DNA from: an uncultured Clostridium sp. | GTDB lineage: Bacteria; Bacillota; Clostridia; TANB77; CAG-508 | Assembly (NCBI GenBank): GCA_947575745.1 | Contig: CANPOS010000004.1 | Span: 223-64,222 of the forward strand | Length of the DNA: 64,000 nt | Reading direction: 5' to 3' | Shown: positions 28,222 to 28,340 of the stretch, one piece after another | Numbering within the stretch: the first letter of the stretch is position 1 | Layout of the letters: the number at the start of each line of letters is the position of its first letter | Translations under genes and position numbers: made by a program | Notes under the pieces: model-generated | The model's input: the letters and a program-made list of their open reading frames with translations, nothing else | What the model was told of the DNA's origin: nothing | Databases searched by the model: none

Positions 28222-28340
28222 TTATTTACTCCTTTATTACATTTCGTATTTTTATACGAGTTACTGTAATAATGTTCTTATCACGAAATAACTCGTGATC
28301 TTACCATATTCTTGGTATCATATTTATCTCTCCTCTACAA
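28222..28340 (-). promoter_or_regulatory. ABC-F leader: uORF (MIPRIW, 28301-28321) plus mutually exclusive hairpins (ribosome-mediated attenuator)
   Basis: RBS gaggagag then ATG ATA CCA AGA ATA TGG TAA. Hairpin A atcacga/tcgtgat. Alternative pairing acgagtta/taactcgt. Hairpin C tcgtat/atacga before the main RBS aaaggag. Confidence 0.55.

Follow-up and report, generated by a model that had tools for sequence, protein, structure and literature searches.

We propose that the ~130-nt 5′ leader of an Msr(D)/Msr(E)-like ABC-F gene in the window (the whole 64,000-nt stretch of DNA that was analysed) is a ribosome-mediated translational attenuator induced by a drug, and we put the probability of this reading at about 60%. 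Because macrolides are the drugs that Msr proteins remove, they are probably the inducers, a part of the proposal that we hold with less confidence than the mechanism itself. The general design is that of the known leader-peptide attenuators; the RNA scaffold and the sensor peptide were not found described. Such attenuators serve macrolide resistance as its natural drug sensors, and they are where most knowledge of context-specific ribosome arrest comes from. The original prediction, made from the letters of the region, had described a uORF encoding MIPRIW behind a ribosome binding site, with hairpin A following its stop codon, and had taken these elements for a leader-peptide attenuator that senses the ribosome. 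All of them are present as described and recur in nine leader variants, and the comparative evidence, together with in silico folding, bears out the anatomy of such an attenuator. The observation is confirmed, and the interpretation that had been attached to it is partly supported.

Positions 28340–28222 carry, on the minus strand and in this order, a Shine-Dalgarno (SD) sequence, a six-codon uORF, hairpin A, the complementarity between ACGAGTTA and TAACTCGT, hairpin C and then the ABC-F gene (Table 1). Transcription would start near 28353, downstream of a putative promoter; the promoters of other copies of the cassette differ, each having a TATAAT box at a similar upstream distance. The loop of hairpin A, TTATTT, is invariant and fits the TTNTTT pause consensus. 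Segment c, the TAACTCGT site, is the exact complement of ACGAGUUA (the ACGAGTTA site, 28296–28289), a stretch made up of the loop of hairpin A and the 3′ portion of its 5′ arm. The pairing originally proposed for these two sites forms part of a conserved alternative structure. An intrinsic terminator was found nowhere between 26500 and 28700, and the helices of the window and of all variants lack a following U-tract; because there is no terminator, the most likely mode of control is translational attenuation as in erm(C). A permissive E-value scan of 26000–30000 against Rfam returned matches at chance level only, none of them at the leader. A short uORF or a single 8-nt complement could occur by chance in DNA of 25% GC; the real support for the leader is comparative.

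Table 1. Elements of the leader and the gene that follows it, in window coordinates.
Element	Position	Strand	Details
Putative sigma-70-type promoter	28388–28360	-	TTGATA at 28388–28383, 17-nt spacer, TATAAT at 28365–28360; 11 of 12 consensus positions match
SD of the uORF, GAGGAGAG (gaggagag)	28335–28328	-	6–8 nt ahead of the ATG
Leader uORF	28321–28301	-	ATG ATA CCA AGA ATA TGG TAA, MIPRIW-stop; read from the sequence
Hairpin A (segments 1 and 2)	28299–28280	-	AUCACGAG-UUAU-UUCGUGAU, 8 bp, first nucleotide 2 nt after the uORF stop; from folding and comparison
ON-state (anti-sequestering) hairpin	28296–28256	-	From constraint folding
Segment 3, UUAUUACA	28272–28265	-	Partner is segment 4 in OFF and GUGAUAA (28284–28278) in ON
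Segment c, UAACUCGU (TAACTCGT site)	28263–28256	-	Invariant in all nine variants
Hairpin C, UCGUAU-AAAA-AUACGA (TCGTAT/ATACGA)	28259–28244	-	Lies within the OFF-helix loop; present in the window lineage only
Segment 4, UGUAAUAA	28241–28234	-	Directly followed by the main SD
Main SD, AGGAG	28233–28229	-	Precedes the ABC-F ATG at 28221
Msr(D)/Msr(E)-like ARE ABC-F gene, 477 aa	28221–26788	-	From profile, PDB and pairwise comparison

The product of the gene has two ABC ATPase domains and an ARD linker, with neither a membrane domain nor a C-terminal extension. Pfam recognises ABC_tran in two stretches and ABC_tran_Xtn at residues 167–279, and the Walker A motif, the LSGGE signature and the DEP Walker B motif each occur twice. 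The protein passes the generic ARE ABC-F profile NF000355 (515.6 bits; cutoff 380). Its original designation as an antibiotic-resistance ABC-F is supported; the further designation as Vga/Lsa-like is not. The best-scoring specific family is Msr (NCBIfam NF000168), with 670.3 bits narrowly below the cutoff of 680, and intact relatives of the clade likewise score just under this value (606–672 bits). Vga (NF000170; 460.1 bits, cutoff 725) and Lsa (NF000167; 209.6, cutoff 750) both failed, and the NCBIfam scores for CplR and Sal were 430 bits (cutoff 780) and 228 bits (cutoff 725), respectively. By the NCBI pipeline the protein would be named 'ribosomal protection-like ABC-F'.

Comparison with structures and with individual Msr proteins points in the same direction. 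The top PDB match is MsrE (5ZLU; E = 1.3e-170), aligned end to end, with VgaA-LC (3.3e-94) and Lsa(A) (1.9e-42) among the other matches, and amino acid identity amounts to 57% with Msr(D), 54% with Msr(E) and 40% with Msr(A). The ARD tip, GGRLAHQKS, is identical to that of Msr(D) and aligns with AGRLGHAK of MsrE, the R-L-x-H-x-K residues corresponding to MsrE R241, L242, H244 and K246; the first three are required for displacement of azithromycin and K246 is conserved (PMC5960329). The ARD stalk is four residues shorter than in Msr(E)/Msr(D). At the 3′ end of the gene, homology to every other copy stops at 26801, the last seven codons apparently being replaced by CQC-stop, whereas the intact allele encodes 481 aa. 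The GC-rich DNA beyond this point is a truncated plus-strand gene. On these comparisons the protein is Msr(D)/Msr(E)-like rather than Vga/Lsa-like, and a macrolide-type role in ribosome protection is predicted for it. Relatives of the gene adjoin Mef-like MFS and Erm-like genes, which fits a macrolide role.

Upstream of orthologues with 59–100% amino acid identity, nine distinct leader variants were recovered, in which the structured elements are 92–100% identical to those of the window, versus 72–90% for the coding DNA. Alignment with MAFFT followed by RNAalifold recovered hairpin A only, segment 3 being shifted by differences in spacer length in the three variants whose uORF encodes MTASMKL[K/R] (see below); for this reason the segments were parsed by pattern and each variant was folded separately. 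Parsed in this way, all nine share one layout: the uORF stop, 1 nt, hairpin A, a spacer, UUAUU[A/G]CA, 1–4 nt, the invariant UAACUCGU, an unalignable spacer of 12–18 nt, UGU[A/G]AUAA and [A/G]GGAG. The SD of the uORF is kept at proper spacing in every variant despite diverged surroundings. At a 74% identical relative (L035) only 150 nt of upstream sequence lie on the contig, and the leader is not recognisable there.

Six of the nine variants encode MIPRIW or, in L032, the GTG-initiated (M)LPSRIW, in front of proteins 65–100% identical to that of the window. Within this RIW set the RNA elements are 96–100% conserved among proteins that differ by up to 35%, and the MIPRIW alleles differ at three positions (ATA/ATT, CCA/CCT, ATA/ATT), all of them third-position and synonymous. 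Since the differences are synonymous only and the SD is kept at the correct spacing, the uORF is evidently coding and its peptide under selection. The remaining three variants (L036, L038 and L065), found at 59–62% protein identity, encode MTASMKLK or MTASMKLR on the same RNA scaffold. The geometry of stop, 1 nt and hairpin A is identical in the two groups, with R-I-W aligned to K-L-K/R.

All substitutions within the helices preserve pairing; they amount to one compensatory change and four wobble transitions. Hairpin A retains all eight pairs in the nine variants, with one compensatory change of U-A to C-G and two wobble changes, and segment 3 has undergone A-to-G transitions only, G-U pairs being kept in both of the alternative helices (L032). 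Covariation is thin, with one fully compensatory pair among nine variants. Hairpin C, which is indeed present in the window, is absent from all other variants (L008, L011, L032, L033, L036, L038, L042 and L065). It had originally been taken for the structure that the switch excludes, a role that in our models belongs to the conserved UUAUUACA/UGUAAUAA helix beside the SD.

Structure prediction for the leader, which the original prediction had suggested as a check, gave about -24 kcal/mol for the 146-nt RNA, compared with -14.6 ± 2.7 kcal/mol for 200 dinucleotide shuffles (z = -3.5), none of which folded as well. The OFF fold consists of hairpin A and a second helix, UUAUUACA/UGUAAUAA, which abuts the main SD; this fold is the unconstrained minimum-energy fold in eight of the nine full-length variants, L065 being already in the ON fold. 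In the latter, ACGAGUUAUU, a UC bulge and GUGAUAA (28296–28278) pair with UUAUUAC-AGUAACUCGU (28272–28256) to give a hairpin of 17 bp with a GAACA loop and about -15.8 kcal/mol. When nucleotides through +13 were held single-stranded, as for a ribosome with its P site on the penultimate codon, ON became the minimum-energy fold in all nine variants, and the unpaired probability of the SD region rose from 0.18–0.80 to 0.71–0.96. A scan of footprints showed that ON wins only when the mask covers 3–5 nt of the 5′ arm of hairpin A (through +13 to +15); with 6 nt or more masked, as for a P site on the last codon, OFF returned in eight of the nine. In silico, the leader has two mutually exclusive folds, between which the footprint of a ribosome on the uORF decides. 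In the isolated core the two folds differ by 0–4 kcal/mol and ON is already the minimum-energy fold in three variants; because OFF and ON lie so near in energy, co-transcriptional (kinetic) folding must be invoked. Pairing of segment c with the ACGAGTTA site alone could be compatible with the OFF helix, as a pseudoknot.

The degree to which the OFF helix covers the SD varies among the leaders. In the MTASMKL[K/R] variants a UCC/CCC anti-SD covers GGG/GGA, and the unpaired probability of GG is 0.00–0.10. This anti-SD is lost in the RIW variants: in L008–L033 the helix reaches the first G of the SD, and in the window variant, with an A·A mismatch, occlusion is weak, GGAG being unpaired with a probability of 0.6–0.95 even in OFF. 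Judging from these models, repression in the window variant may be weak, or it may be steric.

The following course of events would account for the data. By default, hairpin A would fold first and UUAUUACA would next pair with UGUAAUAA, giving a stable hairpin that lies against, or reaches into, the SD of the ABC-F gene. An inhibitor bound in the exit tunnel would arrest a ribosome on the six-codon uORF, and the front edge of this ribosome would keep the first 3–5 nt of the hairpin A 5′ arm single-stranded. The rest of the arm, the loop and the 3′ arm (ACGAGUUAUU..GUGAUAA) could then re-pair with UUAUUAC-AGUAACUCGU, and the resulting ON hairpin would pull segment 3 off segment 4 and free the SD and the start codon. 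The ABC-F product may in turn relieve the stall on its own leader.

In erm(C) attenuation, pairing of segments 1:2 and 3:4 gives way to 2:3 when a ribosome sits on segment 1, with the release of segment 4 and the SD. The window leader follows the same logic with four differences. By way of the invariant TAACTCGT, the loop and the 3′ half of segment 1 are drawn into its ON helix as well; coverage of only 3–5 nt of segment 1 is needed; the uORF ends ahead of segment 1 instead of running through it; and sequestration of the SD is partial in the window variant.

Among leaders of macrolide-resistance genes, those with MT(A/H)SM(R/K)L(R/K) peptides, found at erm(D)/erm(K), msr(A), msr(C) and mef(E)/mef(A), resemble the window leader in having a short uORF with its own SD before the resistance gene; the window peptide, however, is 6 aa long, has no MTxSM N-terminus, and its last residue is Trp where those peptides have Lys/Arg. 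Another likeness is to msrDL (MYLIFM)-msr(D), which also has a hexapeptide leader with a UAA stop directly upstream of a related ABC-F (57% identity, same ARD tip) and has a Mef-like MFS gene on its other side, a placement shared by the leader of L011. The two have no similarity in peptide or RNA, and msrDL-msr(D) possesses a terminator (PMC10314930), whereas the window leader has none and its geometry favours a stall one codon earlier. Reading of further leaders directly gave MTASMRLK followed by ~250 nt with a terminator for msr(A), MLAFVFT and an SD-covering hairpin for msr(E), and msrDL-type peptides (MYYIFM, MYYIFI, MFYIFI) for clostridial and Paenibacillus Msr genes at about 55–58% identity; in each case the RNA is unrelated to that of the window. 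Searches with the leaders of the window and of L036 against 72,556 plasmids by BLAST yielded chance matches only. By this search and the direct readings, the scaffold is distinct from the leaders of msr(A), msr(D) and msr(E).

These known leaders also raise the question of whether the same stalling uORF acts by transcription attenuation or transcript stabilisation rather than by unmasking the SD (cf. msr(A), mef(E)/msr(D) and erm(K)). Rho-dependent termination, NusG-dependent pausing at TTATTT and protection of the mRNA by the stalled ribosome are the routes to be considered. Of the arguments in favour, the weak sequestration of the SD in the OFF fold concerns the window variant itself, while the others are drawn from related systems: the terminators in the Msr-family leaders msr(A) and msrD (for msrD, PMC10314930), the TTNTTT pause motif matched by the hairpin A loop (PMC10314930) and the stabilisation of mef(E) mRNA by a stalled ribosome (PMC4335068). 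Against this, terminators and U-tracts are missing from the window and the variants alike, and in each of the variants the OFF helix extends up to the SD or into it, with the anti-SD of the MTASMKL[K/R] set in addition, an arrangement that suits translational control. We therefore regard control at the level of transcription or mRNA stability as unlikely, albeit still deserving attention.

For translational attenuation, the position of the stall is suggested by the sister leaders. [quoted passage not shown] The footprint that favours ON in our models coincides with this published position (Leu in P, Lys/Arg in A), and the scaffold appears tuned to the geometry of the +X+ stall. Because of the fold geometry and the homology with the MTASMKL[K/R] leaders, the stall predicted for MIPRIW places Ile5 in the P site and Trp6 in the A site. 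This placement depends on the assumed ribosome footprint; masking beyond +15 defeats the switch. An MsrDL-like stall at termination (Trp6 in P, stop codon in A) was also considered; OFF persists there in eight of the nine variants, which makes it less likely.

The peptide itself matches no recognised arrest motif (+X+, IFVI, IAVV, MsrDL and similar), and no paper was found in a literature search with the string MIPRIW. By the present structural rules R-I-W should not stall: in ErmDL, telithromycin stalling is relieved by R8W, and minimal +X+ peptides cease to stall when the residue at +1 is aromatic (PMC8298421, PMC12583479). An arrest on MIPRIW would extend these rules or point to a sensor of differing drug specificity. 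In E. faecium, the leader of a plasmid-borne ABC-F (42% identical) is MTASIRLWFNLLK, with R-L-W at the equivalent position, which suggests that Trp at that place is a recurrent functional choice. The clade constitutes a natural swap experiment, in which one RNA switch, its geometry unchanged, is combined with the textbook +X+ sensor in some members and with an unrelated R-I-W hexapeptide in others. We tentatively entertain the idea, with the odds against it, that M[I/L]P(S)RIW-stop represents an unrecognised class of drug-sensing arrest peptides that replaced MTASMKL[K/R] and stalls with Ile in P and Trp-tRNA in A. Were it true, the arrest mechanism would be different or the spectrum of inducers altered (e.g. 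macrolides versus ketolides versus streptogramin B), and the R-L-W change in the Msr-like leader of E. faecium would be convergent.

The abolition of in vitro +X+ stalling by Trp at +1 could also mean that the leader is a relic or a chance structure, in which MIPRIW, having lost the +X+ motif, no longer stalls and the gene is constitutive or controlled elsewhere; the weak SD masking in the window variant would agree with this. A dead leader, however, would decay as the spacers do, and the RIW leaders have kept both their RNA elements and, through synonymous changes only, their hexapeptide while the proteins diverged. The independent R-L-W leader of E. faecium is a further argument against decay, and we consider a relic quite improbable.

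The original prediction had assigned the gene to the Vga/Lsa type and proposed induction by drugs of the peptidyl-transferase centre (lincosamides, streptogramin A, pleuromutilins), with hairpin C displaced. The uORF, hairpin A and the ACGAGTTA/TAACTCGT complement on which it was built are real, and uORF attenuators are known from Vga-, Lsa- and VmlR-class ARE ABC-F genes (PMC9226507). The evidence nonetheless points elsewhere. The protein scores far under the Vga and Lsa cutoffs and agrees best with Msr in profile, top PDB match and ARD tip; hairpin C lacks conservation; the macrolide sensor is encoded by sister leaders, and genes next to relatives are Mef- and Erm-like. Moreover, a ribosome arrested at the start codon covers the RNA to about +15 and hairpin A begins at +23, so the hairpin would stay closed. 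Induction by such drugs is accordingly rated very unlikely. Least probable of all is that charged Trp-tRNA is what the uORF responds to, as under Trp starvation or with a TrpRS inhibitor, the ribosome waiting at the UGG codon with Ile5 in the P site: that state does flip the fold in all variants, and UGG is always the last sense codon in the RIW group, but there is one Trp codon and no run, the gene encodes a macrolide-type ribosome-protection factor, the sister leaders have Lys/Arg at this place within a known drug-arrest motif, and none of the contexts examined has a link to Trp metabolism.

Relatives at least 72% identical to the window protein were found only in uncultured Clostridia, as metagenome sequences and MAGs from sludge and from the gut of humans and mice. 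A scan with the scaffold pattern returned 13 true metagenome matches and two viral-contig matches, all of which combine MIPRIW with this ABC-F; the uORF pattern alone revealed no other association, one additional viral-contig match (L068) being the C-terminus of a 121-aa ORF and hence due to chance. A block of 1.55–1.62 kb comprising leader and gene is 99.6–99.9% identical in at least six unrelated flanks in Clostridia of gut and sludge. Since this ~1.6-kb unit falls below the naming cutoff for Msr, it may be under-reported as a circulating determinant of macrolide resistance. A group II intron was considered for the GC-rich DNA past 26801 and for a 2.1-kb insertion in L012, and was rejected, as there was no match in Rfam and other genes occupy these places; the L012 insertion holds an erm-like gene and a recombinase fragment. 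One copy of the block is situated on an IMG/VR contig, beside two large serine recombinases and siphovirus tail genes.

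The leader and the ABC-F gene appear to travel together. When the segment 28420-26801 of the window was compared with the corresponding regions of L001-L007, L045 and L054 (other records carrying related ABC-F genes or leaders), a block of 1.55-1.62 kb, comprising both the leader and the gene, was found to be 99.6-99.9% identical across at least six unrelated genomic flanks. Intact copies of the block end, on the 3' side, with ...ATAAATTACA(AT), and AAATTACAAT recurs at the 5' edge of the block, at 28417-28408 in the window and likewise in L002, L005 and L010. The occurrence of AAATTACAAT at both ends suggests that a short direct repeat bounds the block, which would make it a small mobile cassette. 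The leader-plus-gene unit itself contains no recombinase.

One copy of the leader and gene, 99.9% identical, resides on a 13-kb viral contig (L054, an IMG/VR UViG). Since it lies beside serine recombinases and siphovirus tail genes (see the table), this copy is located at the end of a prophage. The mef(A)/msr(D) genes are carried on streptococcal phages, and the L054 copy resembles them in its prophage location.

Features in the window and in related records
Feature	Location	Strand	Remarks
Pair of large ABC ATPase proteins (817 aa and 731 aa) lying side by side	window 19992-24644	-	downstream of the ABC-F block
ORF, 5' part	window, ATG near 26624, within 26600-26801	+	RBS AGGAGGT; begins MKRHLGIIMALAMAFTCLCGTTAFA..., signal-peptide-like
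505-aa tyrosine recombinase	window 32775-34292	+	opposite side of the ABC-F block, together with a DUF3560 protein and an ADP-ribosylglycohydrolase
Insert in the ABC-F gene (~2.1 kb)	L012 580-2674		encodes an rRNA adenine methyltransferase of the Erm-like type (at L012 1593-2507) as well as a fragment of a serine recombinase
Leader-gene copy and its neighbours	L054 480-12595		neighbours are siphovirus tail genes (DUF859, Prophage_tail) and a pair of large serine recombinases
uORF MTASIRLWFNLLK	L063 650-700 (E. faecium plasmid NZ_LR134110.1)		precedes the abc-f gene located at 19966-21447 of the plasmid record
7-codon uORF MLAFVFT, with its own SD	L058 975-1052 (pCTX-M3)		upstream of msr(E)

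In the window, position 26801 is the exact point at which the match of all other copies of the ABC-F gene ends. The encoded protein terminates with ...VYEM-CQC*, the other copies having ...VYEIKDNKIME*, and the junction is followed by ~180 nt with a GC content of ~50%, as opposed to 25% for the genome. This GC-richer DNA is the 5' part of an ORF on the plus strand, starting at ~26624, which enters the 3' end of the ABC-F gene in antisense. Both genes look truncated, and the junction is therefore either a scar left by recombination or the product of a chimeric assembly. Further afield, the first of the two downstream ABC ATPase proteins possesses an FtsX-like permease domain. On the opposite side, GC content climbs from ~0.25 to 0.30-0.38 beyond ~34 kb, and a mobile-element boundary may lie in this part of the window.

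Several metagenomic copies of the gene (L012, L013, L042-L046 and L053) are interrupted at a site equivalent to 27899/27900 of the window, with the MIPRIW leader remaining intact upstream. A search for a group II intron signal was negative.

The two types of leader peptide are mirrored in the ABC-F proteins themselves. We compared the region of the ARD, the linker between the two ABC domains (window residues ~225-245), in proteins with MTASMKL[K/R] leaders (L036, L038 and L065) versus those with RIW leaders (the window, L009, L011, L032 and L033), and the sequence of the ARD tip was found to follow the leader type: GGILSHQKS or CNRSFETKS in the former and GGRL[A/S]HQKS, shared with Msr(D), in the latter. 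This correspondence may reflect co-evolution of the sensor peptide and the protection loop.

The invariant loop and 3'-arm sequence of hairpin A, TTATTT (window 28286-28291), matches TTNTTT, the consensus for NusG-dependent pausing that has been cited in connection with msrDL and vmlR (PMC10314930). Pausing at this site could couple transcription to translation of the uORF; given how often AT-rich DNA contains the motif, this is only a lead.

Among other Msr-type leaders, the uORF of L063, which precedes an unnamed Msr-like ABC-F gene and an MFS transporter gene, is similar to the msr(A)/msr(C) leaders, except that Trp replaces the last Arg/Lys of the +X+ macrolide/ketolide arrest motif. In L058, the uORF is followed by a CCTGTTTGC...GCTAAACAGG hairpin covering the SD of msr(E), which makes for a simple attenuator-like leader.
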